A DNA stretch of 64,000 bases from a virus. Numbering within the stretch: the stretch's first letter is position 1; every line of letters begins with the position of its first letter. The stretch covers positions 1 through 64,000 of the IMG/VR virus record IMGVR_UViG_3300021197_001203; one strand, given 5' to 3'. Positions 45,163 through 63,720 of this stretch are shown one piece after another. The notes beneath the pieces were generated by a model that had not been told where the DNA came from, made no database searches, and saw only the letters and a list, made by a program, of their open reading frames with translations. Made by a program: the position numbers and the translations under genes.

Positions 45163-45199
45163 ATCACACGCCACGGTACCATCGTTAATAGAATTGTCG

Positions 45200-45940
45200 A
45201 AAAAAAATACCCCGAAAAAAAATACCCGAATATACTCCAAAAACACAGGTTTTTTCGATCAAAATGCCACCATGACAGCCCTGACAAAAAAATATCAGAA
45301 AAATCGCCGAGCTGCGTATGCGGTGAGGCGGGCGCAGCCCGCCAAAAAAAAAAAAAATATCGGCACCGAAGCCTAGCCATTGCTCAATGGGTGTGGCGGG
45401 CTAACCACCATTCACCAATGCCATTGCCCAGCCCCATTCAATAGCTAAACCCATTCGATCAGACCAGCTTGAGAACACATTGGTGAATGGCTGGGCTGAA
45501 ACGCCCAGCAACACACCCATTCAAGCCTAAATCTAGGGCTATTGACGGCTATCTGAGGCCATTCACGCCCATCCAGCCCACCGTATATCATTCGGGCTGG
45601 TTGCATTGGTCAATGAGGCCACATTGACACGCCATTCACCCATTCGCCAATCCCATTGACCAATGCCCAGCCAAAGCGCAGATGTTCGTGATATAATGAA
45701 AGTGGGTTATTGGGATAGGTGTCTTAGGTTGGCTGGACGAAAAGAGCATACTGCGGGCTTATCGAGACACGTATGACACGATGGACAGACACAATATACT
45801 ACTTTTACAAAGAACGATTTAATTATACTCTGATTTAGAGTATTATAGAGAGGCTGTCCAGTGTCCAACGTGGGTTTTGTCCTATGTTATCGATGTCTGT
45901 TAGAAACAGCCTAGAAAGGGGTGTTTAGGCTGGTTTGACC
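45200..45940. other. Non-coding strand-switch region (candidate origin/packaging or genome-end region)
   Basis: Lies between the divergent arms. A-tracts (A14 at 45344-45357), repeated dyads and imperfect hairpin 45904-45936. Confidence 0.55.
45378..45666. repeat. Repeated dyad CATT[GC]nn[CG]AAT[GC] (6 copies) forming two 13-bp inverted-repeat pairs
   Basis: Copies at 45378, 45409, 45478, 45604, 45641 and 45654. Perfect inverted repeats 45408-45420/45478-45490 and 45603-45615/45654-45666. Confidence 0.8.
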
Positions 45941-45948
45941 AACAGTGC

Positions 45949-45997
45949 TTAAGTAGGGTGTTCAACCCCGTAGGGGTATGTAGTCCGATGTGGCTAC
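45949..45997 (+). promoter_or_regulatory. Early-type promoter: TATA-GGGTG plus 5' hairpin
   Basis: TTAAGTA GGGTG, with hairpin GTAGTCC..GGCTAC at 45980-45997. Confidence 0.6.
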
Positions 45998-46018
45998 GAT
46001 TAAATGGAAGTGTAAAAT

Positions 46019-49000
46019 ATGAGTATGACAGAAATAATGAATGTAATGAGAATGATACTAGGCAGTCTATTGCCTAGCGTATTCGGCCAAAAGGCTGGAT
46101 TAGAGATGACTGTAATGAGTGAGGCTAGAATCGGTGAAGCTGCCGATCAATTATACCACACCGATTTAGTGCTAATACAACAAGAACTACGCACATTATC
46201 GCACGTTGTTATCACCAATGAGTGGACTGGTGAACACCCAAAGAGAACCGATATGACACATGGTCTTGAAGCACAAATGAAAGTGGACAGATTAATCAAA
46301 GCGTCAGCAACACTAGAGACATACGCAAATGGCTGTGAATGTATCGAATGTAAGTTTGTAGTAGCAAAGGAGATGCCTAGCCTAAAGAATGTAGTATTAG
46401 GGACACCAGTGTCCTCATTCACATGGACAGGGACAGGTATGGTCGAAGAGGCCATTACACCTGACCCAGCACTAGAATTAGATGTGCCTATTACAGAAGA
46501 TGAAATTAGGTATCACATGAAGAAGTGGAACGGTGTAATACGGTCAACCTTCGTATGGCAACACAAAATGAATGCTGCTGAATTGATCGAAGATTTGCGT
46601 AAAGCGTCTTATCCTGCGGCTGGATATGAACCGACCTATGTTGGTGGTGGCAGTGATGCAGAACACGATTGGGTTGAGGCTAACTATAATTTCGATTCAG
46701 AATATGATAGAGAAAAGAATCGAATGAATGCTTCAATGGTAGTAGTGAATGAGGCTAGAACTGCAAATGGGTATAACCTCGATAGGGATAGGACAATACA
46801 CGATGTTCAGCCAGTAGTTAAGTCAATGAAAGAAGTGGAGGGCTGGACACAAGAGATGCTCTATATTATTATCCGTGATAGCACAAACGCATCTGATCGA
46901 GTGGAGGCGGCTGAAATGCTTGTTGAGCTAAAACAGAAGCAATTACACAGCTATCTGAAAGACAACCTAAAACCATCTGTCTTTAGAGCCGTGGATTTTG
47001 TTATTGGTTGTATGCCTAGCGACCTAGATTTGAACACGACAGTGGTGCAGGAATCCCGTGTTAATGATGAAGAACTTAGAGGCTTTCAAGACTATCGCAT
47101 GGGTGCAACACATCAGGCTACTGATGGTCTATACTATGAGACACCATTAGATGAATGCCTGTGGCAGATTCTTGACCGAGAAGATGTGGAGGCTAATTGT
47201 GGCTTAGAAGAGGGTGAAATAACCGAAGCGGCTTGGAAACAATTTCTTGCGTTGCATAAGGATGCCTTCGCTAGTGCGGTTTGTGCGTTGGCTTCGGAAT
47301 ATTACAATGATTATCATACACCAAAAGATGACTTGAGCGATACAGTAGTGCAGGAATCAAGAACTAGAATGTCATATATGTTCAAAGAAGGAGATGAATA
47401 TCCAGTCTCAGTGGCAAATAAATCTCAAGCTCACAAAATGCTTGTTCATATGATTGCTCATGCTTCGGGGGACGGCACACCTATTGCTATCGTTGTGGCC
47501 AACACATATGCAGATGAAGCCTTCGACATACCTATGGAAACTCCACATTCAGGAGATGAGTTATTGCATGGGACATATCAAGCAGTCAAAGAAGTTAGAG
47601 ACGGACAGAGCGTTCATGTTCAATTAAGTCGAGACGATGAAAGATTCGATCACACGACAGTAAAAACTAGCCATGTATGGGACAGGAGGACTTTGACTAA
47701 TTCAGACATTAACAGACTTAGAGAGCAATGGAATAGAGAGTTAGATGGTTTAGATTCAGACTCAAGATTCTTTCCTTATTCGATAACTGGTGCGAGGGCT
47801 GCTTCTAGCTTAATTGGCCAGCTTCTGACTAAAGCAGAAGATGATGATTATGGCGGTTCAGTAATGGTCAATGTTCTATGTGCCGAATACAAAGCAGAAC
47901 AGGTGTTGCGTGTGTATAATTTGAAAGATGAGTTTGGCGATCAGATTATGTCTCAAGCGGCTGGGTATAATCTCCCAATGACCGATGTAAGTCTGTTAGA
48001 GATGAGTCATTCAGTACCACTCATTGGTTATCGTGAGGCTAAAAATACCTTTATTTCATTAGATGGAGGTCGCTGGAGTCTTTCATGGGCTATTACTGGT
48101 AGTTATGATGATATGACTAATGAGTCGCCTAGAATAGAGATTAGCAACCATTACGTTATTGACAAATCAATTAGAGATTTGTGCGACCACATATTAACAC
48201 GAAAAGACAGTGGTCGCTTACTAACCACAGGACAGGTAAAGTCTGATGTGTTAGTCAAAGCCACAAGTAAAGAAAACACATATCTTGTTTCAGACCACCA
48301 GTTAAAGATAGTCAAGAAGGATTTGGCTGACCTTCGATCAGCCGCACAGCTCTCGCTAGATGACACAGTAGTCCATGAGGTTAGATTGGACATACCTGAT
48401 GAGCATTGGGACACACTGATGGAGACATTACTACTAGATACTGAAACAATGGCAATAGAGCCGTCTGAGAGGGACAGAATACGTGAGGCTTTGGATAGTG
48501 TCGAGACAGTCAATCCTTTCTTTGATAGAGGTCAATTGCATTGTGGATTTGATGTTCTTAAGAATCCACTTTACAGAATATCTCTTGCTGATGCGATTAA
48601 TGTATGTAAAGCAGGAGGATTAGTGTGGTTGGCTAATGAATCTCAAGATAACTATGGAGGGGAGGACAGCAGACACTATTCATACCCCGTTGAGAACCAT
48701 GAAGACCTATATGATTATGAAGATAGTGAAGAATTATTGATCGTATTAGAACCAATGTTTTACAATAAGCATGGTAATTTACTGGAGGGACATATACTAC
48801 CTAATTCTAAAGATGGTGTATGGAAGGTGTCATTGACTCTAGCTAGAGATGCGAGACATAGATTAGCTGATGAAACACACTTCGATGAAGAGCATATTGA
48901 AGGCGAAATTAAGTCATGGTTAGAGGACATAGACTACCGTGTCCTTGAGTGCGACATTATAGATGTATCAAACATCCCTAATGCTAACGATGGGGTCTAT

Positions 49001-49735
49001 GACTTAGGTGATGCTGTAAAGAATCAATTAATGGCTGTCGAGACAGAAGAAGAGGTCAAAGAAATAGCGATTCTTTATCAGACCCGTCAAGCATGGTTGG
49101 ATGGTTTCAGACACAAGAATGAGGAAGGTGAATATGAATTGCTTGAGCCTAGCACCAAAGAACAAATTGACGCTTTGTATGTCCCATTACCTAATTCAGT
49201 CGTTCTTGATGTGATAGAGCAATTACAACCAGTATGGGGTTATCATTGGTCAAAGGTAGTAGGCAATCTTGATACTGTGTCTGATCAGATATTTCACATA
49301 ATGAACCACGACAATAGGAATCCATTGTCAGTCAGTTTCCATAAGCATGGTATAGACGGAGATAGAACCATGCAGAATTGGATGGGGGACAACGGACTGG
49401 GACATACATCAATGAGTATGAATGACGTGATAGCCTACCGACTTACAGACGGCTGGGTGTATCACAGTTGCAGAGCTTTAGGATGGGCGTGGTTGCCTGT
49501 TATTCATCAGGCTCAAGGGGCAGAGAATATGACTCGCTTTGAAAAGGTAAAAGCAATGATTAATCTTGATACAAACAGGATTCCGCTTCAAGAGGGAGAA
49601 TTAGAATTGATTGAGGCTATGGTTAATGGTTTTAACCATCCCCGTATCAATGACTCATGGGGGGAACTCAATGAAGATGGAATGTTTTGGGCTACAAAAG
49701 CCATGGAAACTCTGAGTCATGAGGTGATCGAATGA
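46019..49735 (+). CDS. Large modular acidic protein with repeated TVVxE[SAV]R linkers (possible polyprotein)
   Basis: 1238-aa ORF with 5 copies of the linker motif. Confidence 0.8.
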   Translation: MSMTEIMNVMRMILGSLLPSVFGQKAGLEMTVMSEARIGEAADQLYHTDLVLIQQELRTLSHVVITNEWTGEHPKRTDMTHGLEAQMKVDRLIKASATLETYANGCECIECKFVVAKEMPSLKNVVLGTPVSSFTWTGTGMVEEAITPDPALELDVPITEDEIRYHMKKWNGVIRSTFVWQHKMNAAELIEDLRKASYPAAGYEPTYVGGGSDAEHDWVEANYNFDSEYDREKNRMNASMVVVNEARTANGYNLDRDRTIHDVQPVVKSMKEVEGWTQEMLYIIIRDSTNASDRVEAAEMLVELKQKQLHSYLKDNLKPSVFRAVDFVIGCMPSDLDLNTTVVQESRVNDEELRGFQDYRMGATHQATDGLYYETPLDECLWQILDREDVEANCGLEEGEITEAAWKQFLALHKDAFASAVCALASEYYNDYHTPKDDLSDTVVQESRTRMSYMFKEGDEYPVSVANKSQAHKMLVHMIAHASGDGTPIAIVVANTYADEAFDIPMETPHSGDELLHGTYQAVKEVRDGQSVHVQLSRDDERFDHTTVKTSHVWDRRTLTNSDINRLREQWNRELDGLDSDSRFFPYSITGARAASSLIGQLLTKAEDDDYGGSVMVNVLCAEYKAEQVLRVYNLKDEFGDQIMSQAAGYNLPMTDVSLLEMSHSVPLIGYREAKNTFISLDGGRWSLSWAITGSYDDMTNESPRIEISNHYVIDKSIRDLCDHILTRKDSGRLLTTGQVKSDVLVKATSKENTYLVSDHQLKIVKKDLADLRSAAQLSLDDTVVHEVRLDIPDEHWDTLMETLLLDTETMAIEPSERDRIREALDSVETVNPFFDRGQLHCGFDVLKNPLYRISLADAINVCKAGGLVWLANESQDNYGGEDSRHYSYPVENHEDLYDYEDSEELLIVLEPMFYNKHGNLLEGHILPNSKDGVWKVSLTLARDARHRLADETHFDEEHIEGEIKSWLEDIDYRVLECDIIDVSNIPNANDGVYDLGDAVKNQLMAVETEEEVKEIAILYQTRQAWLDGFRHKNEEGEYELLEPSTKEQIDALYVPLPNSVVLDVIEQLQPVWGYHWSKVVGNLDTVSDQIFHIMNHDNRNPLSVSFHKHGIDGDRTMQNWMGDNGLGHTSMSMNDVIAYRLTDGWVYHSCRALGWAWLPVIHQAQGAENMTRFEKVKAMINLDTNRIPLQEGELELIEAMVNGFNHPRINDSWGELNEDGMFWATKAMETLSHEVIE

Positions 49736-52599
49736 GCTGGAAAGTAATTGAGCTAGCCGACTCAACACCAGCACCTGCTATGGATGGTGATGAATCCTTT
49801 GACACTATGGGGGGTTATGCACATACAAGTCTATACGAACGTGCGGTCAAGCTGGGCGCATGGTGTCCTTCAACAAACAAAGACGGCTTCATGTGGTCCA
49901 TTGAACAAGCTGAGATATTAACTAAGACTCAAGTCGATTTAGTTAAATGGACACACTACGGAATACCTTGTCGTGTTTCGATCAATAGTGTTGCAGGTAG
50001 TGGTAAAACTACACTGATTGAAGGGATTGCCAAATTGATTTGTAATATGGGGCTAGGCAATCAGAAGATAATCATGACAGCCTTTAACACCCACATAGCA
50101 AAGGCATTAGGTGATGTGGCTAAGTCTCTCAAGAAGAGTGGTCTAACAGGCTTCAAATCAATGGGTTATAGCAACACAGCCTCAGCTGGTGGTCGTGAGC
50201 TGTTATTCAAAATGATAAGGGCTAATGGTATGACACCTATTCAGGATGACCAATACAAATACAGGAGTCTCAGTCGCCAAGTGTTTTCTGAGATAGCAGG
50301 AATGAAAGAGATGTTGATAGGCATAACAAGTCAGCATGAAGAGATTAAGAATCCAGTGGCTGGATGGATGAGTGGCACTAGGGCTATTGAACACCTAGTA
50401 AGTGCATCAATGGCCAGTGGGATAATTACAGAGACAGAAGGTAGTATTGATTCGATCAAGAAATTGATTACAAGTGAACACGGACAACGTGATGATGTAG
50501 TATTTCTAATTAGTTTCCTCGGTGTTGATGCAGTGGCTAATGCTGTTGAACAAGTCATAGAGAGGGCTATGGACACTTTGGTGTCAGACATAGTGTATAG
50601 AGCAGACAAGGATGCAGTAGTGCCTGATTCAGTCTCAGGCTACTATTCACGCAGGTCATTAGTATCAGTGGCCGAATTACTAGCCCAGCCCAATGGACAC
50701 CAAATACACAGGCAGTTAGGTGTGGACTTTCCATACAGGAAAGAAGTGCCTAAACAGGTAATGAATCATGAGCTTGGTAGTTTAGCTAAAGTTCAGAATC
50801 GTGGTGGTGTATCAGGCACTTACAAAGTATTGATCGAAGATGTTGATGATGGGTCAGCTTGTTTTAGGTCAGCTAGCTATGCAGCATCTAATATTGTCAT
50901 GGGTAGTGTTCAGGACATAGAAACAAGGCTGGGAGTTTCGTTTCAATATGTCCCTCGCAATAATCAGGTTGTTCTTCGTAATTTAATCAGGACAGCCTCA
51001 GAAGACAACCAAGCACCAGTGCCTGAATGTCAATACAGATACATTGTATCTAAGGACAGGGCACAAATATTGAAGGCTATTATTAACGAAGTATTAGGTG
51101 CAAAGAATGTCGAATATAGCAGTGAAGAGGTTCTTACGACAGGAGTCGCTACATCAGGCAGCAATGCCACTGTGCCTGTGTCGATGCAGGACTTTGTGTA
51201 TGGTTGTGTTTATCATAATCTAACCGACCCAGCACCAGCGGCTATGATAATGATTGATGAGGTGCAAGACTTTTCTCAATTACAAGGTAGGTTCTTACAG
51301 TGCTTTTCTAGTTCTAATACTTCTATGATTTGTGTGGGTGATGTTAGACAAAGCTTGTATCTATTCAATTTTGCTAACAGTAAAGCGACCAAGATGATCA
51401 TAAATGATTTCAATTGTGATGTGATGCCTATGACTATTTGCTGGCGAAACAGTAAGAATGTAGTCTATGATGTTCATCAATTTGTCAATCAATGTATTGC
51501 TGAGGCGGGGGTTGATGGTTATGATAAATACAAGTTATTGAATGCTGGTATGGGTGATTATTCAGCACATAAATGTCCTGATGCGGATTACTGGCCTGAT
51601 GGTAAAAGGTCTGTTGTTATGCCAGCGCATTTGCTACCTTATGCGGCTCAATTAGGAGATATAGTGTCGTGTAGGATAAATGCGCCATTGGCTAAATTAG
51701 CTTTGAGGACGCTAGTGGATGGTGAAAAGAGTATTACATTACCCGCTGGTAAAAAGGGAATAGGTGAAGAGGTTATGTCAATAGTCAAGGGTGGCTTGAG
51801 ATATAATGGGGCGCATCAAGGATTCGGTTTGTTAAATGGTGATGAAGCTAGAGAATATCTCGATCATGATACAATAGAAAAGAGATATGATTCATACATG
51901 GACACTAACTATGAAGCGGCGGTAAAGAGGTGTGGTGGTGATTTGACAGCGGCTAAAAGTGAGGCTACTTATGTAAAGCTGGCCGATATTGCTGATGCAG
52001 CTCAGACGTTGCTTCATGGTTATATTGACAGAAGAGGCGAAAGTGGGACAGCACCAATGGCTAAGTTTGAGGGTTGGTTGAACACTTTATGCGGTGAAAC
52101 AGAAGGCAGGTCAGGTCATGATAATACTATCAGATTTGCATCGGTTCATAGGACAAAAGGCGCACAAGGCAAACAGGCATTCGTAATAACTGATCGAATA
52201 AACCACGAAGGTCAATTGAAACCCACGTTTATGTTGCCACATTGCATGAATAATGCAGCCGAGGTCGTGCAGGAAATAAATGCAGCTTATGTAGCAGCAA
52301 CGAGAGCCATTGATAGAGTGGTCTTTGTTTCCTTCTCTCAAGCACTAGCTGATAAATATCCAACATGGGAATCATTCAGCTTAGTATGGAATCAAGAGAT
52401 AGAAGAAGGTCAGAAGGTTGTAGCAACACAGAAGATAATTGACCAAGATAACGAATATGGGGTCATAGCTAACACTGGCGATTCAGGAGAGGTTATCCAT
52501 GTAGCTGAGGATGGTTTTCCTTGCGTTAGATTTGAAAGCGGTTTAGCTACCGATGTATCATTCGACCAAATAGTGGAGGCGAACAAGCACGATGAGTGA
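49732..52599 (+). CDS. UvrD/Rep-like superfamily 1 helicase
   Basis: AGSGKTT, IDEVQD, VGDVRQSLY, ICWRN, SVHRTKG and YVAATRA, with a large insertion between motifs I and II. Confidence 0.88.
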   Translation: MSWKVIELADSTPAPAMDGDESFDTMGGYAHTSLYERAVKLGAWCPSTNKDGFMWSIEQAEILTKTQVDLVKWTHYGIPCRVSINSVAGSGKTTLIEGIAKLICNMGLGNQKIIMTAFNTHIAKALGDVAKSLKKSGLTGFKSMGYSNTASAGGRELLFKMIRANGMTPIQDDQYKYRSLSRQVFSEIAGMKEMLIGITSQHEEIKNPVAGWMSGTRAIEHLVSASMASGIITETEGSIDSIKKLITSEHGQRDDVVFLISFLGVDAVANAVEQVIERAMDTLVSDIVYRADKDAVVPDSVSGYYSRRSLVSVAELLAQPNGHQIHRQLGVDFPYRKEVPKQVMNHELGSLAKVQNRGGVSGTYKVLIEDVDDGSACFRSASYAASNIVMGSVQDIETRLGVSFQYVPRNNQVVLRNLIRTASEDNQAPVPECQYRYIVSKDRAQILKAIINEVLGAKNVEYSSEEVLTTGVATSGSNATVPVSMQDFVYGCVYHNLTDPAPAAMIMIDEVQDFSQLQGRFLQCFSSSNTSMICVGDVRQSLYLFNFANSKATKMIINDFNCDVMPMTICWRNSKNVVYDVHQFVNQCIAEAGVDGYDKYKLLNAGMGDYSAHKCPDADYWPDGKRSVVMPAHLLPYAAQLGDIVSCRINAPLAKLALRTLVDGEKSITLPAGKKGIGEEVMSIVKGGLRYNGAHQGFGLLNGDEAREYLDHDTIEKRYDSYMDTNYEAAVKRCGGDLTAAKSEATYVKLADIADAAQTLLHGYIDRRGESGTAPMAKFEGWLNTLCGETEGRSGHDNTIRFASVHRTKGAQGKQAFVITDRINHEGQLKPTFMLPHCMNNAAEVVQEINAAYVAATRAIDRVVFVSFSQALADKYPTWESFSLVWNQEIEEGQKVVATQKIIDQDNEYGVIANTGDSGEVIHVAEDGFPCVRFESGLATDVSFDQIVEANKHDE

Positions 52600-52858
52600 G
52601 GGGACACAGGACACACCTGCATGGGCTAAAGCAGCTCTAAAGGTCAAAGGAGTAGGGGTTGGAACCCCTACCCCCGAAGACTGGGATGGTAGGTGTGATT
52701 CTTGTGGTCAATCAGGCGTTTGCCACCACCCTCATGATCAAGTCGTATGGCGACTTAATGAGAGTGAAGTGTGCTTAAAATGCAATCAATTACTACATGG
52801 TAGCCCCACAAAGGATGAAGAGAGATGTGCTTCTTGTGGCCGACTATGGTGTGAATGA
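52592..52858 (+). CDS. Zn-finger protein
   Basis: CDSC..CHH and CLKC..CASC. Confidence 0.6.
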   Translation: MSEGTQDTPAWAKAALKVKGVGVGTPTPEDWDGRCDSCGQSGVCHHPHDQVVWRLNESEVCLKCNQLLHGSPTKDEERCASCGRLWCE

Positions 52859-52902
52859 TTAAATAGGGTGTATTCCCTAGAGATTGATGTCCTACGTGGA
52901 CA
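52859..52902 (+). promoter_or_regulatory. Early-type promoter: TATA-GGGTG plus 5' hairpin
   Basis: TTAAATA GGGTG, with TGTCC-tacgt-GGACA at 52888-52902. Confidence 0.6.
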
Positions 52903-52917
52903 GGAGTATGATGAGAT

Positions 52918-55508: not shown

Positions 55509-55859
55509 ATGACTCGGTATGAATACACTTGTTTAGCTTGTAATGAAACTGTTTTGTTGCGAGGCGAGCCTATGCACAATGACCTTTTGGAAAAGGGTCA
55601 ATGTCCAGCTTGTGGACATAGTGGCAGCTCTATATGGGATTACCGCTATCCTGAACGGACACCCTCTTTTGACCCGTGGAGTAAATGCCCTACTTGTAAT
55701 AACAAACAAGGTTTAGCCCTCAAGGTCTTAGTGAAACATAATCCCGATTGGAGGGGCGTGGACAGATGTTTTCGTTTTTGCAGCCCTAAGTATGGTGGTT
55801 GTGGTGAAAAGTTCTTTGAAGATGGAATTGAAGGTATTGAAGGTGATGAAAATGAATGA
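55509..55859 (+). CDS. Multi Zn-ribbon protein
   Basis: YEYTCLAC..CPACG, CPTC..C..C. Confidence 0.65.
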   Translation: MTRYEYTCLACNETVLLRGEPMHNDLLEKGQCPACGHSGSSIWDYRYPERTPSFDPWSKCPTCNNKQGLALKVLVKHNPDWRGVDRCFRFCSPKYGGCGEKFFEDGIEGIEGDENE

Positions 55860-56115
55860 TACAGAAAAACGCTGGGTAAAGTATGCACAAGAGCATTTAA
55901 CGGGCAAAACAATCGTTTCAGTTAGATACCTGACCAAAGAAGAAGCAAAGGGTATGTATTGGACAGCTCAATGCCTTGTGATCACGCTAAACGATGGAAC
56001 GGTGTTATTCCCTTCAAGAGATGATGAAGGCAACGGTGCTGGGACAATGTTCGGCAGAACAAGCAAGAATGGCGGTGCTGATTTGACATTTCCAGTTCTT
56101 CAAATCTATGACTGA
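55852..56115 (+). CDS. Hypothetical phage-type protein
   Basis: Start MNDTEK after a GGTGA RBS. L.GKTI..VRY...DDEGNG.G motif. Confidence 0.65.
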   Translation: MNDTEKRWVKYAQEHLTGKTIVSVRYLTKEEAKGMYWTAQCLVITLNDGTVLFPSRDDEGNGAGTMFGRTSKNGGADLTFPVLQIYD

Positions 56116-56124
56116 GGTGATTAA

Positions 56125-56328
56125 ATGAAAGATAATGAGTGGGGGACTAGGTTTTGGTCGCCTATGCCACAGCCGCCAAGAGAACCGCAGGATGAAGATG
56201 TAATGTCTATTCACTTGTGTCCTGTGTGTGAACGAAGATTAAGGCACCCTCAAGACCTAAAACTAGGGCTAAAAAAGGATAGTTTGCTACAATGTGATGG
56301 TTGTGGCTGGTGGACTATTTTGAAATAG
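56125..56328 (+). CDS. Zn-ribbon protein
   Basis: CPVC...CDGC. GAGGTGA RBS. Confidence 0.6.
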   Translation: MKDNEWGTRFWSPMPQPPREPQDEDVMSIHLCPVCERRLRHPQDLKLGLKKDSLLQCDGCGWWTILK

Positions 56329-56383
56329 TTTTGATCGAATCAATGTGAGAGGTTAATAATAACACGACAATCGGTCAGCCTAC

Positions 56384-58018
56384 ATGGGACGAGATGAACA
56401 ACCAATATATGTATTGAATCAAAACATAGACCGCAAACAAGGCAGGACAGCACAGCGCAGTAATATAGCTGCGGCCAAAGCAGTAGCTGAAGCTGTTCGA
56501 TCAACATTAGGGCCAAGCGGTTCTGATAAGATGTTGGTATCAGGAGAGGGTAAAAGCGTCATAATAACTAATGATGGTGCTACAATACTGAGAGAGATAG
56601 ATTGCCAACACCCAGCGGGACAGCTTATGATTAGTGTCGCTGAAGTCCAAGAAGAAGTAGCTTATGACGGCACCACAAGCTCGGTTATAGTAGCAGGTAG
56701 TCTATTAGCTGAAGCTGAACAATTAATATCCAAAGGCATACATCCCACTACTATTTGTAAAGGTTTCAAGAGTGCTTCTAAGGTTGCGTTAGAAAAAATT
56801 AAGAGTCAGGCTAAAGATGTTGAAATGATGATGGAGGCTTCAGACCTTGAAAAAGAGGCGGCTCTGTCTATGATTGCTAAAACCGCATTAACTGGTAAAT
56901 CCGCAGAGAGTGAGATTGACCAAATAGCAGGATTAGCTATTGATTCAGTCATGAGAGTAGGTGGAGAGGGTAAAGCGGATTTGGATGACATTAAGATATT
57001 GACATTTTCAGGTGCTAGCTTTGAAGACTCACATATTTTAGATGGAGTGCTTCTTGAAAAAGAGCCAGTGCATAGTCAGATGCCCACATCAGCGAGTGGT
57101 AAAATATTGTGTCTAACATCTGATATTGAAGTTAGAGAATTAAAACAAGAGACTACCCTTTCGATCACAGACCCAAACGCACTAGAACAATTTCTAGCTA
57201 AAGAAGAGGCGGCCTTGTTAGAGATGGTTGATGCTATAAAAGCGTCAAAGAGTAAAATTGTGCTGTGTAAAGGGGCTATTGATGAGTTGGCCCAGCACTA
57301 CTTACAGAATGCAGGAATTATAGCTGTGAACCGTGTGAAAATGTCAGACCTTCAATTAGTTTGTAAATCCACAGGGGCAAAGCTAGTCAATTCTTTGAAA
57401 GATATTAGTCAGAAGGATTTAGGAGATGGTGCTACCGATGTAGTGGAGTATGGTGATCATAAATGCCTACACATATATGGCGAAAACGCCAACAATCCTT
57501 CACCTGTTTCAGCTGTTTTACGAGGTGTTAGCTCTCATACAGCCGAAGAGTTAGAACGAGCTTTTGATGATACTGTGGGGGTTGTTTCCGTTGCTTATAT
57601 TAATAATCAATTTTTAGTGGGTGGCGGGGCATCATACATGGGTTTGTCAAAGGAATTGAATAGCTATGCAAAGTCTGTTGGTGGACGTGAACAAATGGCC
57701 GTTGAAGCGTTTGCTAGAGCATTAGAGAGTGTCCCAATAACATTAGCCGAGAATGCTGGTGCTGATGCCGTTGATGTTATGATTCAGTTGAGGCACGTTG
57801 TCGCTAATAATCCCCGTTCAGTTCACGGTATTGACATGAGTGGTAAAGTAAGTAATATTCTAACCGAGAAGGTCATAGAGCCAGCGATAGTCATCGAATC
57901 AGCAGTTAAATCGGCTACTGAAGCAGCTGTGTCTATTCTGAGGATTGACGATGTTTTGAGTATGAAGCCAGCTGGTGGGCCTATGGGTGGTATGCCTAGT
58001 ATGGGTGGTATGGGCTAA
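56384..58018 (+). CDS. ths: Group II chaperonin (thermosome subunit)
   Basis: STLGP.G.DKM, ITNDGATIL, DGTTS, GGGA, LAENAG and ILRIDD motifs, with a GGM tail. Leaderless, with TTAATAAT at 56353-56360. Confidence 0.95.
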   Translation: MGRDEQPIYVLNQNIDRKQGRTAQRSNIAAAKAVAEAVRSTLGPSGSDKMLVSGEGKSVIITNDGATILREIDCQHPAGQLMISVAEVQEEVAYDGTTSSVIVAGSLLAEAEQLISKGIHPTTICKGFKSASKVALEKIKSQAKDVEMMMEASDLEKEAALSMIAKTALTGKSAESEIDQIAGLAIDSVMRVGGEGKADLDDIKILTFSGASFEDSHILDGVLLEKEPVHSQMPTSASGKILCLTSDIEVRELKQETTLSITDPNALEQFLAKEEAALLEMVDAIKASKSKIVLCKGAIDELAQHYLQNAGIIAVNRVKMSDLQLVCKSTGAKLVNSLKDISQKDLGDGATDVVEYGDHKCLHIYGENANNPSPVSAVLRGVSSHTAEELERAFDDTVGVVSVAYINNQFLVGGGASYMGLSKELNSYAKSVGGREQMAVEAFARALESVPITLAENAGADAVDVMIQLRHVVANNPRSVHGIDMSGKVSNILTEKVIEPAIVIESAVKSATEAAVSILRIDDVLSMKPAGGPMGGMPSMGGMG

Positions 58019-58281
58019 TGCCTATACGTGCAAATAAAACATTAAGATTAAGAAACAAATTAATTGCATTCTTAAAGGTGCGAGGCACTGCTTCTTCAAG
58101 GCAATTGCTCGATCACTTCAACTCAACGACAAGACAAGGCTCAACCATGAATAGCATGACAAACGTGCTAGCAAAAGACCCTAGATTCAAAATAGTAGGA
58201 CATACCAAAGTATCAAAGTTTTCAGGTAAATACTCTATGCTAGTGTGGGGTCTTTCAGGTGAAGAAGAAGAAGAAGAGTGA
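58018..58281 (+). CDS. Winged-helix protein (DUF3860-like)
   Basis: T.RLR.K...FL...S.QLL.H.N.T.R.G.T.....NVL.KD pattern. Confidence 0.6.
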   Translation: MPIRANKTLRLRNKLIAFLKVRGTASSRQLLDHFNSTTRQGSTMNSMTNVLAKDPRFKIVGHTKVSKFSGKYSMLVWGLSGEEEEEE

Positions 58282-58501
58282 TACGTTGTGCAACGTGCAT
58301 CATTTGAGAGTCAGAAGAGAAACTAAGTGTAGGTTATGTGGTAGGTCATATTCATGAGAAATAGAAGAGCTTGCAGGTGGTGTGGAGGCAAGGTCGATCA
58401 CAACCATGATAGGAAATATAGGTGTGAAAATTGCCCCCCAAAATGGAACGCACGATAAAACAAAAAATGCCTCGCAGTATCACGTTTAGCTGACCTAAGT
58501 A

Positions 58502-58551
58502 TTATAAGGGGTGCCCCCCCTCATAGGTAATGTAGTGGACACGGGGCCACT
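58502..58551 (+). promoter_or_regulatory. Early-type promoter: TATA-GGGGTG plus 5' hairpin
   Basis: TTATAA GGGGTG, with AGTGG..CCACT at 58534-58551. Confidence 0.55.
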
Positions 58552-58677
58552 GAGAATGGAGATGAAGAGAATGACAACAGATAAAACGGAATGTAATGGT
58601 AAAGAATGTATGTGCGGCACTAAATCATCAGGTGAGATGATAGTGCCTATTGGACAGGGACACAGCTGGTGTCTTGA

Positions 58678-59742
58678 TTGTGGAGGGATTGTATGAGCCA
58701 CATGAAACATGAATCATGGATGATCAGATTGGACAACAAAGCAGTTAATAAAATGGAGTTAGTAAAACACTTCTGTCTAAATATAGACTGGGATTCGATT
58801 GTCGATCAAGCGTATGACTGGTGTAAAGAGAATCATTACTTAGGTCAGCAGCCTACACTTATGGATGAATTGCCTAAAGTAAAGCAGACAGAATATAGCT
58901 CAAATAAAAGAATGGCCGACCTATGGTCTAATACTGAATCCTCATTAAGAAGTCAAGCAATACTTAGAAGACAGCCAGTAAAAGTAGGCGGTGGATTCAT
59001 TGTGCGATTTAGTGGTAATGGGTCAAGAGCTGGCCCTCATTACGGTTGCACACTTGGGACTAATTGGGTATCGACAAAGGCAGGTGTTGATACAATAATC
59101 CATGAGCTGGCGCATATAGCTCATCTAGGACGTTATCATAAAGCAGTGATTAATGGACGGGCTAGGCCACACGATATATTTTACAATAGGATTATGCTGA
59201 CTGCTATGGACGCAGCGTTTGGTTTGACTAAATCATGCACTGACCCCATTTACATGGGTTATTCTGTTGGTAATGGCTATGCGCCAACATCAAAGGTAAA
59301 AGGAATGATTAATCTTGATACAGACAGGATGAAGCCATTCATCACAAGAGAAAACTTTGATTGGTTGGATGATCGAGAAGAAGCAAAACAAATCAAGGCG
59401 GCTAAACCAAAGAAACAACGAATTACAAGACAAACAGGTGAAGGGACATACGAAACTAATTGTGGTGATATTGAAATTACCAATGTTGGTGGCTACGGCT
59501 ATACTTGTTATGAGATTGAAGCACCAAACGGATTCAATTGGTGTGGTGCCCATTACAAAGAAGTTAATACAATCAAAGAGGCGTATTCCTACCTAGGCAC
59601 GTATGACAAAGACAAGGGACGATACACAGGTGATGAGCTAGAACGATGCGAGGCTGGTTGTGATTGTGAATGGGACGTTGTTGATAGCGAGCATTACAGT
59701 TCTGTCCGATCACTTGATGGTCTAGCGTCATTGTTTGCATAG
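58678..59742 (+). CDS. Zincin-like metalloprotease-domain protein
   Basis: IIHELAH...PHD.FY. The true start is probably MSHMKH. Confidence 0.7.
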   Translation: MWRDCMSHMKHESWMIRLDNKAVNKMELVKHFCLNIDWDSIVDQAYDWCKENHYLGQQPTLMDELPKVKQTEYSSNKRMADLWSNTESSLRSQAILRRQPVKVGGGFIVRFSGNGSRAGPHYGCTLGTNWVSTKAGVDTIIHELAHIAHLGRYHKAVINGRARPHDIFYNRIMLTAMDAAFGLTKSCTDPIYMGYSVGNGYAPTSKVKGMINLDTDRMKPFITRENFDWLDDREEAKQIKAAKPKKQRITRQTGEGTYETNCGDIEITNVGGYGYTCYEIEAPNGFNWCGAHYKEVNTIKEAYSYLGTYDKDKGRYTGDELERCEAGCDCEWDVVDSEHYSSVRSLDGLASLFA

Positions 59743-59806
59743 AGGTATTGGGTGAATACCCTATATGAATTAATTAGGCAGTAAGTTAGAGTATCAAACT
59801 GCTGTA

Positions 59807-59851
59807 TTAATATAGGGAACCTACCCCTGAGAGGATTACCACTACGAGTGG
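59807..59851 (+). promoter_or_regulatory. Early-type promoter: TATA-GGG plus 5' hairpin
   Basis: TTAATATA GGG, with CCACT-acg-AGTGG at 59839-59851. Confidence 0.55.
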
Positions 59852-60834
59852 GAGTAATGATTGAGATGACGAGAAAGATATTGAAAGAGAAACTTGAAGC
59901 ACAGCTAGAAGGAATGCTAACACCCGAAATAGGGCCATTATTAGAAGTGGCCGGATCGCTATGTAAGGAGATATGGCATGAAAAAAATGGTGTCTATCTT
60001 GATGCCGATGACCGTAAGGTCAAGCAGCAAACAAATGATGTATTGGCGGTAGTCGATTCAGTCAGCCATATTGAAATCAAATTAGGCAATGGTAAAGTAT
60101 TATCATTTGGCAATGCTAAACCTGACAAACCAGCTATGACTATACCTTACGGCATGAGTGATAGAATCAATACAGCAGCAATGCCTAAAGATTGGTTGCC
60201 TATGGCTCTATACCAACACTTAGTCGATGTATATGAAGGAGACACTACCTTTGCACAGGATGTTGCAGATTATCTGAATAAATGTATTGACGCAGCTACT
60301 GAGATTAGTGAAGAGGGTAGGCTTTCGATCAACAAGAAGAAACTACCGACTCCTTCAGCTACTGTGTTTACACAAGGTTTAGTGGAGTCTCACAAAAGAA
60401 TGTTCAAATCAAAAACCAAAGGTTCAACAGTATTCAATCTGACTTGTAGTATTGAAGATATTCAAGACGACCAGCCACTTAGAATACCACCACGATTAAC
60501 GGGATTCATATCCCCTAATATCATAGAAACTCCAGTTGCGCCACCAATGACTTCAAGGCCGCACACTTTACAGTCAGAAGCAACGGAGGACAAGGAGGCA
60601 GACGAAGGTGGTATGTCTGTTTCCGACCACTTGTTCAATGTGCTGGGTAATGACCCACTAACTAAGGGCATGATCAGAAAGGCGATAGCTGATAACGTCC
60701 CTGAGCCGATGTGGGTGGCTGAATTAGATAAGCTGGTCAAAGAGGGTATCATAATCAAGGACGCTAGTGGTGGGCCTAGAAGCACAAAATATGTGGTGGT
60801 TTCACCTATTCCTGATTTGGAGGTGATCGAATGA
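59848..60834 (+). CDS. Hypothetical protein with C-terminal winged-helix
   Basis: PLTKGMIR...LDKLVKEGII..G..STKY wHTH-like tail. Confidence 0.7.
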   Translation: MGVMIEMTRKILKEKLEAQLEGMLTPEIGPLLEVAGSLCKEIWHEKNGVYLDADDRKVKQQTNDVLAVVDSVSHIEIKLGNGKVLSFGNAKPDKPAMTIPYGMSDRINTAAMPKDWLPMALYQHLVDVYEGDTTFAQDVADYLNKCIDAATEISEEGRLSINKKKLPTPSATVFTQGLVESHKRMFKSKTKGSTVFNLTCSIEDIQDDQPLRIPPRLTGFISPNIIETPVAPPMTSRPHTLQSEATEDKEADEGGMSVSDHLFNVLGNDPLTKGMIRKAIADNVPEPMWVAELDKLVKEGIIIKDASGGPRSTKYVVVSPIPDLEVIE

Positions 60835-61214
60835 AGGCAAATGGTATTCCTGTCAAAGAGGCATACATTTTGAGAGCTTCAGGCGAGCTAGATTATACTC
60901 TCTTGTCTGAAGAGGATTGGTTTGAAGAGGTTTCAATCATATTAGGAGGAATGGTTGAGCCTGTAAATTATGTTAGAGAACACATAGGTGAAATGTATGT
61001 AAATGAAGAAGGCATACCTTTAGGACTCCAACCTAATCTTTTAGCTATGTCATTATTTGACCGACAGCCTTTCGGAAACACAGTGTTTAGAGGTAATGTT
61101 GTCTTGATGAGAAAAGGCATGAATGCTGATGTTAGAAATAACATAGACCTACTGATCGCATCAATGGAAATACAAACAAAAGAATGGTTCGATGTAAAGG
61201 AGGAAGAGGAATGA
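60831..61214 (+). CDS. DUF3846-like protein
   Basis: LGG.VE...MYVNEEG..LGL.PN..A...GNVV. Confidence 0.7.
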   Translation: MKANGIPVKEAYILRASGELDYTLLSEEDWFEEVSIILGGMVEPVNYVREHIGEMYVNEEGIPLGLQPNLLAMSLFDRQPFGNTVFRGNVVLMRKGMNADVRNNIDLLIASMEIQTKEWFDVKEEEE

Positions 61215-61427
61215 ATAATTACGAATGTTCATGTTGTGGTCATATATGGGCTGATGATGACGGACAACCATGTGGATGTGGTGAAGAATGAGCGACACAG
61301 AAAAGACTTGTTGTGAATGGTGTAGTGAAACTATCTCATCTAAAAAAGATGAGAGACGCATTAGAGGGGAGACGATTTGTAAGGATTGTAAAGATGGTTG
61401 GAATGAGCAACCTGCTGATGGGGGGTT

Positions 61428-61679
61428 TTGGTAATGAGCAAGGCAACAGAATATGCAATATTAGTATGGGATGTGAAGCCCGAAGATTACCCCTTTCTCG
61501 GTTGTATAGACAGGGAGTTCAACGTGGACACTCTTGATGAGGCAAACAAAATCTATGAAGGTTTAACGGATGTGTTTGCTAAGGAACTACATCACTATTA
61601 CGAATACAAAACACATGGGTTCATGTCTAGTTCTAACTGTCTAATGTCATGGGCGATTGAAGGAGATGATGATGAATGA
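61428..61679 (+). CDS. Hypothetical protein
   Basis: ATGA-coupled to the next ORF. Confidence 0.55.
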   Translation: MVMSKATEYAILVWDVKPEDYPFLGCIDREFNVDTLDEANKIYEGLTDVFAKELHHYYEYKTHGFMSSSNCLMSWAIEGDDDE

Positions 61680-61903
61680 GCAAAGAAGATTATTACATGA
61701 GTAATGAACACGGTGCGGCTCTTTACTTGTTTGCTGGTGCAGGAGATTTAAGATTCGTAATAACGCCTAGTGGTGATGGACGCATTGAATTGAGTCAGCC
61801 TAGAAAACATATTCAATTTAAGTTAGATAACTCTCAAATCACTATGATGACTAAATATCTTAATGAAGAATACGAGAAGGTGTATCAGGAGGAATCAGAA
61901 TGA
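61676..61903 (+). CDS. Hypothetical protein
   Basis: Coupled ORF. Confidence 0.6.
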   Translation: MSKEDYYMSNEHGAALYLFAGAGDLRFVITPSGDGRIELSQPRKHIQFKLDNSQITMMTKYLNEEYEKVYQEESE

Positions 61904-62322
61904 AGTTTATGATAGAAGTTGAATTGTCAAAGGAGGACATTTGGGGTCAGCTTGTTGGGGCTTTAGAAGGAGGGAGTAATTATTGGATCGATTATGTTGA
62001 AGAACAAGTTCCTAAAGATTTCACCCATGTAAGCTCATCTGAAGTGCCTTATAGTAATCAAGAAATAGATTACCACACTAAGAATCAAACCTATTCATAT
62101 ACAAGTCAGCTGCCGTTATTAGGTGGTTCATTTACAGTTATAGAGAGAGGTTATGACCACAACCCGAAAGTGGTCAATGCAGAAAATATCCTAGCTGGCC
62201 TAAAAAAAATGGCTGAAAAATCACCAAGACACATGAAAGATTTGATCGAGGAAACATTCGACTCAACAACCAGTGATGTATTGCTACAATACACTGTCTT
62301 TGGAGAGGTTATCTATGGGTAG
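61900..62322 (+). CDS. Hypothetical phage-type protein
   Basis: ALEGGSNYW...D...DVLLQ..VFGEVIYG. Confidence 0.7.
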   Translation: MKFMIEVELSKEDIWGQLVGALEGGSNYWIDYVEEQVPKDFTHVSSSEVPYSNQEIDYHTKNQTYSYTSQLPLLGGSFTVIERGYDHNPKVVNAENILAGLKKMAEKSPRHMKDLIEETFDSTTSDVLLQYTVFGEVIYG

Positions 62323-62548
62323 GACTCGTATAGAGTATAATAGAAAACCACGTTCAAGGTCGCAAAGAAGAGCAAACTTAGTTTGGAGTGGGGCTAGAAT
62401 GGTATTTGGTTCGCCTCCTGATTCTATGACTATCATAAAAGCTGGTCAAGGCAGAAGCACTGAATGGATAATAAGAAAGAATGATAAAAAGATAGAGTTG
62501 TCAGGAGACAGTAAAGCGGCTTATCAGAAGCTGATGGAGATGATATGA
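62273..62548 (+). CDS. Hypothetical basic protein
   Basis: The true start is probably MGRTRIEY, after a GGAGAGG RBS. Confidence 0.55.
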   Translation: MMYCYNTLSLERLSMGRTRIEYNRKPRSRSQRRANLVWSGARMVFGSPPDSMTIIKAGQGRSTEWIIRKNDKKIELSGDSKAAYQKLMEMI

Positions 62549-63357
62549 TGAAGATAGTAAGGTCATTCCCTAGCTCGCTACCTACTGAATTATTAACTCA
62601 ATTTTATCGTGTAAGAAACACGATCAGAGTTGGGGGCGACTTAGTAAGTGTAGCTGGTGAATCGAAAGTCTCAAGATTTCCATACAAAGACGCAAGGTTC
62701 CCTATGTGGTCTAAAGAAGGCATTGAATCAATGTATGATTATGGGCAACATACAGTTTCTTCTAACCCGTTTTTTGTAGGCGGGGTTGAATATCTTGAAG
62801 AGCCAAAGGAACCAATACATTATACTAATAAAGAAGTATTAGGATGGATAGAATCAGAATATCCTATTCATAATGTTTGGGATGAAGGGGAGATAATTGC
62901 TTTATTACCCGAAGTCGAAATACCCCCTCTTTTCTTCAACAGGGGGCAGATGTATGCAGCGGTTAATATGAATGGCGAGCTGGGGGTTGTCTGTCGTTCT
63001 GTGCGTGATTCTTATGTTATGATAGACTTTGATGACACCTGTTTAGATGACTTCAAGATTGCAGCTTTAACATCAGGCTGGCAGTGTATAGAGTATGAAA
63101 CCCATCTATTAAACGACCCTCCAGTAATCAGGGCTAATTTATCAGGTCATCACGATTTGAAATATTTCCCAAGAGTCGATGACGGCCATTTTGATCAGAA
63201 AACCTTTGCATTTTGGGTGGGTTCCCGTTGTAAATGGTGTGGCTCATCATCCCTAACACCTCCGTTCTTAGGCGAAAGAGGGTGTGTTGCTTGTAAAACA
63301 GTCGGAGAGGATAACGTATCTAGTGATAACTTCATTAATCTAAATGATTTAGTGTGA
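62545..63357 (+). CDS. Hypothetical protein with C-terminal Zn finger
   Basis: CKWC...CVAC. Confidence 0.7.
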   Translation: MMKIVRSFPSSLPTELLTQFYRVRNTIRVGGDLVSVAGESKVSRFPYKDARFPMWSKEGIESMYDYGQHTVSSNPFFVGGVEYLEEPKEPIHYTNKEVLGWIESEYPIHNVWDEGEIIALLPEVEIPPLFFNRGQMYAAVNMNGELGVVCRSVRDSYVMIDFDDTCLDDFKIAALTSGWQCIEYETHLLNDPPVIRANLSGHHDLKYFPRVDDGHFDQKTFAFWVGSRCKWCGSSSLTPPFLGERGCVACKTVGEDNVSSDNFINLNDLV

Positions 63358-63720
63358 GTGATTAAAGGCAGCACTACATTCAGATCGCTTAAGATGAACG
63401 ATAAAAGGCTCAAGGCAATAAGCATAGAGAGAAGATACAGGGTGTTTCATTCGGCATGGACAGATATACTGAGAGAGCTTAGAGCTGAAAGAGGGGCTTT
63501 GTTAGGCAGCAGTGAATATGATGACCAATTAGCTATGCAGAAGGCTGTTAGCTTAGATTTGATCGACCAAAGAATACAAGACGCTGAAACATGGATGACA
63601 AGATACCAAAATGAGAGAGAGGATAATTACAGGAAACTGAAATGGAATGCACGAAAGCTCATCAATGAGATAAAGACCATGACTGATAATGAATTGGAGG
63701 CAGGGCACCATGAAATCTAA
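63358..63720 (+). CDS. Hypothetical coiled-coil protein
   Basis: 120-aa helical ORF. Confidence 0.6.
   Translation: MIKGSTTFRSLKMNDKRLKAISIERRYRVFHSAWTDILRELRAERGALLGSSEYDDQLAMQKAVSLDLIDQRIQDAETWMTRYQNEREDNYRKLKWNARKLINEIKTMTDNELEAGHHEI

Follow-up and report, generated by a model that had tools for sequence, protein, structure and literature searches.

The locus and its features

The window analysed here is a stretch of 64,000 nucleotides from a magrovirus-like genome of 108,315 bp, which belongs to a virus of marine archaea and is labelled G000 in comparisons. The following features are referred to throughout.

1..64000, no strand: GATC lattice, holding 135 of the genome's 213 GATC sites
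40094..41587, minus strand: P0004, predicted alpha-class (D12, Dam-like) adenine methyltransferase, from a Pfam D12 match
45032..64000, no strand: 'hardened' early (replication) arm, delimited by site voids
45170..46018, no strand: divergent intergenic region at the left edge of the array, its role suggested by sequence
45255..63566, no strand: TGATCGA/TCGATCA array, 27 copies in the window on recount
49719..49735, plus strand: gene junction GAGGTGATCGAATGA, with an identical copy at 60818-60834
49732..52599, plus strand: UvrD-like helicase gene, the marker that recovered lattice-sharing relatives

The left-edge region combines iteron-like CCATTSRCCAATG repeats and A-tracts with two TGATCGA copies (45255 and 45455), and is a candidate origin or control region. 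At the junction GAGGTGATCGAATGA, three elements share bases with the heptamer: a ribosome-binding-like GAGGTGATC, a start ATG and a stop TGA.

The TGATCGA array

The original prediction described TGATCGA/TCGATCA as a dispersed functional site enriched in the early arm. All 27 positions given for it are exact, and the recount found no further copy between 45255 and 63566. The remainder of the window (1-45254) is sparser, as claimed, with 14 copies; the earlier figure of about 13 was one short. Beyond the window the array goes on, reaching 30 copies over 45.2-66.8 kb (45,255-66,790), the last ending at genome position 66,796. The whole genome carries 54.

The enrichment survives shuffling. The window total of 41 compares with 7.5±2.6 (maximum 14) in 100 dinucleotide-preserving shuffles. 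For the 30 copies in 45-67 kb, within-gene synonymous-codon shuffles give 8.8±2.4 (maximum 17 of 300), and shuffles keeping both codons and dinucleotides give 13.7±2.2 (maximum 18 of 60). The enrichment thus persists under the very shuffles in which, according to the original prediction, it might vanish. Ranked against codon shuffles, TGATCGA comes first among the genome's 7-mers (54 versus 19.2). Within 45-67 kb the heptamer is present in 28 of 101 synonymously possible places, where codon usage predicts 4.6; elsewhere it occupies 22 of 273, with 9.5 expected.

Both orientations occur, mostly inside genes, as first noted. Thirteen array copies lie on the plus strand and 17 on the minus strand, in 18 runs (15.7 expected). 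Relative to transcription, 14 are on the coding strand, 14 on the opposite strand and two are intergenic. Five of the six frame/orientation classes are occupied; the sixth is empty because a TGA stop would stand in frame. The earlier view that codon usage is not the cause is upheld: the shuffles, the five frame classes on both strands and the synonymous-opportunity counts lead us to reject a codon or peptide origin. A ribosome-binding-site origin is likewise rejected, since junctions of the GAGGTGATCGAATGA type account for only two of the 30 copies.

The heptamer is specific at all seven positions, and its single-mismatch neighbours are not raised. Its flanks carry little information beyond position +8, where A is favoured and T, which would create ATCGAT, is absent; an extended or bipartite motif is therefore rejected. 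Gaps in the array average 743 bp (CV 0.54) and are evener than under uniform placement (P=0.0003) or random choice among synonymous opportunities (P=0.0009).

An even lattice of GATC sites

The evenness of the array belongs to a wider pattern. The 213 GATC sites of the genome form one even lattice, with a site about every 500 bp and a genome-wide gap CV of 0.58. Among 436 k-mers of similar count the CV is 1.04±0.15, and none is as extreme in its evenness as GATC and its subset CGATC; codon-shuffled genomes give 0.985±0.05 for GATC. The longest gap is 1,269 bp genome-wide, and 844 bp in 45-67 kb, where the CV falls to 0.47. Early-arm GATC sites other than TGATCGA interleave with the heptamers to give a combined CV of 0.465, against 0.79±0.07 when they are placed at random (P<5e-5). 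GATC is costly to this virus: its number is about half of expected, yet every stretch of about 1.3 kb holds one.

The selected unit is GATC spacing. TGATCGA is the favoured context in one arm and no stand-alone signal. The original prediction of a dispersed functional signal at the DNA level stands, as does its tie to GATC, but the choice of the heptamer as the unit does not. The UvrD-like helicase gene illustrates the pattern, with five TGATCGA among six GATC sites at gaps of 474, 378, 564, 466 and 330 bp. One GATC per gene is rejected as the rule, since spacing stays even inside single long genes. A second lattice of TCGA behind the GA extension was also considered and discarded: TCGA sites are spaced in the ordinary way in G000 (CV 0.93) and with no more than mild regularity in the relative G207 (CV 0.71). 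A literature search for even GATC spacing found nothing relevant, and one for the literal heptamer returned primers only.

Restriction-site avoidance and the hardened arm

The contrast between arms that was first seen in the heptamer accompanies a far wider purge of restriction-type sites, which had escaped notice. GTSAC is absent from 45,032-69,352, GTAC from 48,014-71,211 and CCGG from 44,598-59,951. R-flanked GATC is about 10-fold depleted in the early arm (6 versus about 47 expected), and RGATCY is missing altogether (0 versus 15). This arm is purged of several restriction-type sites, and GATC therefore persists there almost only as YGATCR. Genome-wide, RGATCY occurs once (about 100 expected), CGATCG never (17 expected), CGCG seven times (204 expected) and TCGCGA never (17 expected). 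Short palindromes are thus near-absent relative to composition and codon expectation, the mark of restriction-site avoidance.

Avoidance accounts for the flanks and not for the heptamer enrichment. The TGATC(A/G) class makes up 49 of the 54 early-arm GATC sites, and within the allowed set TGATCGA alone is raised, six-fold (28 versus 4.6 expected). TGATCA (9 versus 11.3) and TGATCGB (8 versus 6.4) are neutral. Arm-specific voids of other sites recur in G207, G002 and G004. Such arm-specific loss suggests an exposure to host restriction that is peculiar to the replication arm. The contig seems to be circularly permuted, so that an account of the hardened arm as the first DNA to enter is unproven.

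Conservation and turnover in relatives

The INPHARED phage set holds no close phage relatives of this virus. Relatives with helicase identity as low as about 26-30% also have the lattice, every lattice virus having been recovered through its UvrD-like helicase. GATC gap CVs are 0.59 in G207, 0.55 in L025, 0.49 in L126, 0.48 in L127 and 0.45 in L029, compared with 0.8-1.36 in about 40 unrelated phage loci, which lack the lattice. One relative, L027, has GATC without significant regularity (CV 0.92), and GATC is wholly lacking from sister magroviruses.

Individual sites turn over while spacing is held, lost sites being replaced 60-75 bp away. Between L026 and G207, which are 91% identical, the conservation of GATC sites does not exceed that of other 4-mers, and each of the three sites that only G207 has is 62-73 bp away from one that only L026 has (P about 7e-4). 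The closest relative of G000 is represented by L024, a 2.1-kb fragment 72% identical to it. Each has four GATC sites there, at alignment columns 50/50, 620/627, 1086/1055 and 1416/1560; one of three heptamers is shared and heptamer density is kept. G000 and G207 share only about 10% of their GATC sites, yet the sites of the two genomes lie closer to each other than under a circular-shift null (162 versus 224±23 bp, P=0.001). Flanks follow lineage dialects: TGATCGA in G000 and L024, RGATCYG in L127, CGATCG in L126 and GGATCG in L025. Stabilising selection on spacing in this virus lineage is part of the favoured model, which as a whole has an even chance of being right.

Methyltransferases

The original prediction also noted a Dam-like methyltransferase. 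P0004, whose ORF runs over 40094-41587, does match Pfam D12 (29 bits, cut-off 22), but scores far below the NCBIfam Dam cut-off. Motif I (VEPFMGSLAV) precedes DPPY near residue 333, the alpha-class order, and the roughly 250 residues between them are predicted to hold the target-recognition domain. By profile match and motif order P0004 is counted as a putative cognate enzyme encoded in the genome; its structure model has a pLDDT of 34. Protein searches return homologues of P0004, and no P0004 locus was found in IMG/VR or GTDB genomes. G207 has no such homologue though it keeps the lattice, and P0004 therefore cannot be the universal writer. A second candidate, the leader-tagged, C5-like P0003, has a predicted fold, modelled at moderate quality, that matches only cytosine-C5 methyltransferases, and these weakly (best E = 0.018). 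Nothing informative came from profile searches of P0003 in PDB sequences and Pfam.

Both GATC-bearing genomes examined in full encode methyltransferases (G000 with P0004 and P0003, G207 with a P0003 homologue and two N6_N4 enzymes) and none was shown in three GATC-free relatives, a correlation over five genomes that is confounded by phylogeny. On the host side, GATC and CGCG are methylated in marine Euryarchaeota MAGs (PMC8919816), and the sites methylated in MGIIa are CGCG and TCGCGA (PMC9516812). The heptamer is tied to GATC, as first proposed, and probably to methylation.

Alternative explanations

The pattern could be a neutral by-product of host mimicry, very-short-patch-like biased repair, or codon or peptide usage. 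Part of the signal does remain in codon shuffles (8.8-13.7 of 30), since shuffling leaves in the pool the codons that make up the heptamer. The enrichment nevertheless exceeds the shuffles by 7-9 SD, occupies five frames and both strands, and is regularly spaced. Host mimicry is rejected for the hosts sampled: 201 Poseidoniales genomes hold at most about 0.48 TGATCGA per kb, and the three densest fit low-order Markov expectation. Biased repair is rejected as well, as the C-to-T neighbours TGATTGA, TGATCAA and TAATCGA are not clearly depleted. A neutral origin is very improbable and already largely refuted. Mosaic ancestry would explain the arm contrast differently, with the early arm longer resident in a TGATCGA-preferring lineage and the late arms acquired later from viruses without the preference. 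Tailed viruses are mosaic in general, and similarity to G207 is higher for late-arm proteins (65-87%) than for early-arm proteins (34-62%). Nucleotide identity to G207, however, is about equal in both arms (0.69 versus 0.67), and other sites are void by arm in G207, G002 and G004 too. RGATCY, CGATCG and CGCG are purged from all arms, and the late arms have therefore long been under the regime of this host. Mosaicism is an improbable source of the contrast.

Two further readings assign the sites to a specific machinery. TGATCGA itself may be bound by an early-arm-specific viral protein, with the GATC core incidental. Such a protein might be a nickase, a factor for recombination or for the initiation of replication, or one that nucleates at many sites to organise or silence the genome; the reading is unlikely, if the least so of the rivals. 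Specificity at all seven positions, six-fold enrichment while other allowed contexts stay neutral, density maintained in the 72% relative, and an array that begins exactly at the divergent region with iteron-like repeats all favour such a protein. Against it, gaps between heptamers are filled by other GATC sites, heptamer positions are not conserved, and the lattice is genome-wide and extends to relatives without the heptamer preference. The lattice could instead mark where a methyl-directed nick-and-unwind process of repair or recombination, using the viral UvrD-like helicase, tells the strands apart or enters the DNA, on the model of MutH/UvrD repair of E. coli. To our knowledge, methyl-directed mismatch repair is the only well-known process requiring GATC within about 1-2 kb. 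The UvrD-like helicase shared by all lattice viruses points the same way, but is confounded by how the relatives were found. MutS occurs in one of three host MAGs examined, and host GATC spacing is slightly regular too (rank 1-3 in four of six genomes). The virus yielded no MutH or MutS_V profile matches and no NucS signature, five host MAGs yielded no MutH, and the search of virus and hosts for MutH, DpnII, MutS and NucS gave nothing decisive. A mismatch-repair signal would call for a MutH-type GATC nickase together with MutS/MutL; the search, which covered MutH and MutS, found neither in the virus. This reading also leaves the heptamer preference and the arm contrast unexplained, and it is decidedly unlikely, a little less so than mosaic ancestry.

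Comparison with known systems

Chi and KOPS are dispersed oligomers with a strong strand and direction bias. They resemble the present sites in being selected for coverage, with a translocating enzyme meeting one within a limited distance. TGATCGA, unlike these, is split 14/14 with respect to transcription around a palindromic GATC core, and the suggestion of a Chi-like signal does not fit because orientation bias is lacking. We know of no RecBCD or AddAB in archaea. Among the viral proteins are a UvrD-like helicase and, encoded separately, a Cas4-like PD-(D/E)XK nuclease; that the two act together would be conjecture. The USS and DUS of Haemophilus and Neisseria share many-fold over-representation, location mostly in genes, equal use of strands and lineage 'dialects'; Karlin et al. 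(1996) reportedly found them unusually evenly spaced. They are 9-12-mers of cellular genomes read by an uptake receptor, whereas here a 4-bp palindrome with a 7-bp preferred form stands at half of its expected frequency and no uptake process applies.

Phage P1 pacase reads methylated TGATC(A/G) hexamers clustered in one 162-bp pac site. The same hexamer class dominates the early arm here, but is spread over the genome. With Dam/GATC systems in general the lattice shares the GATC core and a spacing useful for repair at 1-2 kb or less, although no MutH or MutS was found in the virus. Avoidance of sites confined to first-expressed DNA is known from the first-step-transfer region of phage T5 and the early region of T7. 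Here, too, one arm lacks sites tolerated elsewhere (GTSAC, GTAC, CCGG and R-flanked GATC). In contrast to T5 and T7, the assembly looks circularly permuted, any stepwise entry would be hypothetical, and the purged arm keeps and even enriches one GATC context.

HIP1 (GCGATCGC) of cyanobacteria has a suspected methyltransferase link (Xu, Lawrence and Durand 2018, PMC5861425), in which it resembles the present case. It is a palindrome with positionally conserved sites, periodic at 10-90 kb (PMC5861425). The heptamer is asymmetric, its sites turn over, its regularity is at about 0.5 kb, and candidate hosts are not enriched. The suggestion of a HIP1-like or host-derived signal fails because the 201 Poseidoniales genomes are unenriched beyond composition and positions are not conserved. 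Archaeal Dnd-Pbe phosphorothioation at GpsATC sparsely labels DNA as 'self', sparing it from a defence by which viral replication is blocked (Xiong et al. 2019, PMC6459918); no spacing rule is reported for it in haloarchaea (PMC6459918). The likeness lies in sparse GATC modification in archaea and in a viral protein of the PAPS-reductase family, to which DndC belongs. That match is generic, and no DndD, DndE or DndA was identified in the virus.

A model for the lattice and its meaning

The best reading, which we consider about evenly balanced between right and wrong, sees in TGATCGA the form that an evenly spaced GATC lattice, kept by stabilising selection, takes in the early arm, with GATC sites serving as modification marks. 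The heptamer would be the restriction-safe, and probably methyltransferase-preferred, form of a mark needed every 1.3 kb or less. The following steps are proposed. (i) GATC marks would be written by the virus's own predicted methyltransferases, the Dam-like P0004 and/or the C5-like P0003. (ii) The TGATCGA context would combine two advantages, falling outside the host's GATC-containing restriction sites (RGATCY, CGATCG) and being best modified. (iii) Restriction-safe marking would be most important in the arm whose integrity is needed for infection to start. (iv) The lattice would be read on double-stranded DNA, in either orientation, by a protein needing a marked site within about 1 kb. (v) As reader, the candidates are a host defence that scans DNA and leaves marked DNA alone, or a helicase/nuclease machine of the virus. 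We know of no archaeal defence or repair system documented as needing GATC every 1.3 kb or less.

The over-represented oligomers Chi, USS and HIP1 each led to some DNA-handling machinery. The requirement to which the statistics point here, a 4-bp site selected against in number yet recurring at short regular intervals, is undescribed for any virus. The CV of GATC gaps is a simple genome statistic that can be screened across all viral contigs, and the pattern is testable on existing long-read marine methylomes. The boldest interpretation is tentative and more doubtful than the model above: a clade of archaeal viruses would keep a homeostatic, orientation-free lattice of modified GATC 'self' beacons, at most 1.3 kb apart, for a scanning machine, with lineage flank forms matching the methyltransferase and the host's restriction enzymes, and with sister viruses deleting GATC. 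If this is true, the scanning machine would be either a host defence that spares marked DNA or a viral helicase-nuclease, and the lattice would parallel, in palindromic form, Chi or self-recognition by modification.

Virus identity and genome layout

The virus record (G000; IMGVR_UViG_3300021197_001203) is a single record of 108,315 bp, of which the window is the opening 64 kb. By its NCBIfam match (528 bits), the chaperonin of G000 is a thermosome subunit of the archaeal type, and Poseidoniales (Marine Group II) MAGs contain its nearest cellular homologues, at 45–46% identity. G000 has the thermosome and numerous structural genes in common with 91–109 kb IMG/VR contigs. This picture fits the magroviruses, a group that Philosof et al. 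2017 (PMC5434244) described. Genes were called approximately, as the longest ORFs. Genes point leftward from 1 to 45 kb, rightward from 46 to 76.5 kb and leftward from there to the end, and GC skew tracks these directions. The putative 'early arm' (approx. 45–67 kb) corresponds to the first two-thirds of the rightward block; the label is that of the original prediction.

46–76.5 kb, rightward: UvrD-like helicase, thermosome, zinc-ribbon protein, PAPS-reductase-family protein, Cas4-like nuclease and ERCC4 nuclease
69,528–74,296, right after the heptamer-rich region: PAPS-reductase-family protein, Cas4-like PD-(D/E)XK nuclease, weakly Sak4-like protein and ERCC4 nuclease, together a possible module for recombination or DNA modification
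45170–46018, divergent intergenic: iteron-like repeats of CCATTSRCCAATG, about ten in number and facing either way, together with CGAAAAAAAATACCC units in tandem and a run of poly-A; the region is a candidate for a replication origin or for early/late control

A repetitive giant gene leaves the contig start and appears to continue at the contig end; the assembly is therefore probably circularly permuted. This gene carries copies of GTATTAGT, which occurs 24 times genome-wide. Twenty copies, on a single strand and separated by distances divisible by 3, lie in window 1–2900 and genome 103,774–108,133.

Heptamer enrichment

The original prediction placed 27 copies of TGATCGA/TCGATCA in the early arm, and all 27 coordinates are exact. 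The run extends beyond the window, with 30 copies in 45,255–66,790 and 24 in the remaining 86 kb; dinucleotide shuffles give an expectation of 7.5 per 64 kb. When synonymous codons are shuffled within genes, 8.8±2.4 copies are expected at 45–67 kb against the 30 seen. The codon- and dinucleotide-preserving shuffle, named in the original prediction as the check on enrichment, raises the expectation to 13.7±2.2, and the enrichment persists. The heptamer uses five of the six frame/orientation classes, is split 14/14 by strand relative to transcription, and is present at 28 of 101 protein-permitted positions (4.6 expected by codon usage). Because of the shuffles, the spread over frames and strands, and this occupancy, the enrichment is a DNA-level signal. 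A coding explanation is unsupported, given the shuffle results and the five frame classes. The Chi/HIP1-like signal also proposed is not supported: the even strand split leaves an orientation-dependent (Chi-like) reading without support, and a host-derived (HIP1-like) reading is unsupported, as the heptamer shows no enrichment beyond composition in 201 Poseidoniales genomes.

The GATC lattice

The heptamer belongs to a wider lattice of evenly spaced GATC sites. GATC is under-represented in G000, with 213 sites versus approximately 400 by composition, or 201 versus 347 by codon usage. TGATCGA accounts for 30 of the 54 early-arm sites; nearly all others are TGATCA or TGATCG[C/G/T] and are located within the longer inter-heptamer gaps. 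Across the whole genome, the gaps between sites have a coefficient of variation (CV) of 0.58 and reach at most 1,269 bp; the early-arm figures are 0.47 and 844 bp. The 436 k-mers that occur 120–350 times have a CV of 1.04±0.15, and GATC and its subset CGATC (0.51) stand far apart from the rest, none of which falls below 0.82. Codon-shuffled genomes give a GATC CV of 0.985±0.05 (minimum 0.86). Random placement of the 23 non-heptamer sites in the early arm yields 0.79±0.07 for all sites combined, versus an observed 0.465 (P<5e-5). Even spacing is found also within single genes, as in the helicase gene (gaps of 474, 378, 564, 466 and 330 bp). Gaps below 100 bp number 14 versus approximately 38 expected, and long gaps are likewise scarce. 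This double shortage implies that each site carries a cost, yet coverage is needed.

Conservation and site turnover

In the relative G207 (IMGVR_UViG_3300020452_000548), the 147 GATC sites have a gap CV of 0.59, the lowest of 427 k-mers. Shorter relative loci give 0.55 (L025), 0.45 (L029), 0.49 (L126) and 0.48 (L127). Regularity is weaker in L125 (0.75) and not seen in relative L027 (0.92); approximately 40 unrelated phage loci from the same helicase search range from 0.8 to 1.36. G000 and G207, at about 68% nucleotide identity, have only approximately 10% of GATC sites in common. Their sites nevertheless lie nearer to one another than under a circular-shift null (162 versus 224±23 bp, P=0.001). 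Between G207 and locus L026 (91% identity), GATC is conserved no better than other 4-mers, and all three G207-only sites have an L026-only site 62–73 bp away (P about 7e-4); these compensatory-turnover P-values take no account of local substitution clustering. L024, a 2.1 kb, 72% relative of G000, and the matching G000 stretch each hold three TGATCGA, one at a shared position, and four GATC sites, all at matching approximate positions. Turnover of sites with their spacing kept is the mark of stabilising selection that acts on the spacing.

GATC is wholly absent from the sister magroviruses G001, G002 and G004 and from locus L031; approximately 350–450 sites are expected in the GATC-free 91–109 kb contigs. 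It is also missing in unrelated loci L137, L139, L144 and L163. Poseidoniales MAG contigs (G005, G009, G013, G010) have about the expected GATC frequency. In four of six host genomes, the GATC gap CV (0.87–0.90) is the lowest to third lowest of comparable k-mers, which faintly recalls the regularity seen in the viruses.

Avoided sites and flank context

G000 contains one RGATCY (about 100 expected), no CGATCG (17 expected), no TCGCGA and seven CGCG (204 expected). Methylation is reported at CGCG and TCGCGA in MGIIa archaea (PMC9516812) and at GATC and CGCG in marine Euryarchaeota MAGs (PMC8919816). The genome-wide lack of these sites therefore looks like a way of evading restriction by the host, and the match of CGCG/TCGCGA loss to MGIIa methylation independently supports the assigned host. 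The early arm is further void of GTSAC (45,032–69,352), GTAC (48,014–71,211) and CCGG (44,598–59,951), and RGATC half-sites make up 6/108 there versus 25% elsewhere and 57% in G207. One arm without a single copy of a short site that is frequent elsewhere in the genome was also noted in G207 (AGTTC/GAACT, 47,409–80,544), G002 (GTAC, 74,398–100,000) and G004 (CCCGG, 90,725–103,539); arm-specific avoidance seems general among magroviruses.

Excluding the forbidden contexts leaves the early arm with TGATCA and TGATCG alone. TGATCA and TGATCG[C/G/T] are about neutral in frequency; TGATCGA alone is raised, 6.1-fold in the early arm and 2.3-fold elsewhere. The approximately 23 excess TGATCGA sites restore the GATC density otherwise lost to the ban on other contexts. 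Other lattice viruses prefer RGATCYG (L127), CGATCG (L126) or GGATCG (L025), and flank choice thus seems to vary by lineage. Host restriction enzymes, the virus's own methyltransferase, or both may determine the flank. G207 has k-mers of its own above codon-shuffle expectation: CAGCTCAA (21 versus 2.8), ATCGGGCG (11 versus 0.7) and AGCTTCAG (36 versus 9.7; both strands, genome-wide).

Candidate methyltransferases (METHYLTRANSFERASES)

40094–41587: P0004, Dam-like (D12) methyltransferase with alpha-class motif order
genome 76,474–78,258 (L021:16474–18258), minus strand: P0003, leader-tagged, Arg/Lys-rich C5-like protein

In P0004, about 250 residues separate motif I from DPPY, a stretch that would contain the target-recognition domain. 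Its only close homologue (86% identical) comes from Tara Oceans data. P0003 has an N-terminal leader and invariant GG, C and ENP motifs. Its match to Pfam C5 is sub-threshold, its fold matches are weak and all to cytosine-C5 methyltransferases, and its family comprises at least eight uncharacterised proteins. A SVADASFEEAW-type leader is also present on the D12 homologues P0006–P0008; P0004 is without one. P0003 is common to G000 and G207, which additionally encodes two N6_N4 methyltransferases. The GATC-free genomes lack P0003 and gave no match to a D12 or N6_N4 methyltransferase; this methyltransferase–lattice association is drawn from five genomes.

A model for the lattice

Lattice GATC sites may be modification marks, with TGATCGA the putatively best-protected context, and a putative protein would read the marks at a range of approximately 1 kb. 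The lattice may serve a repair-type function, defence evasion, or replication/recombination.
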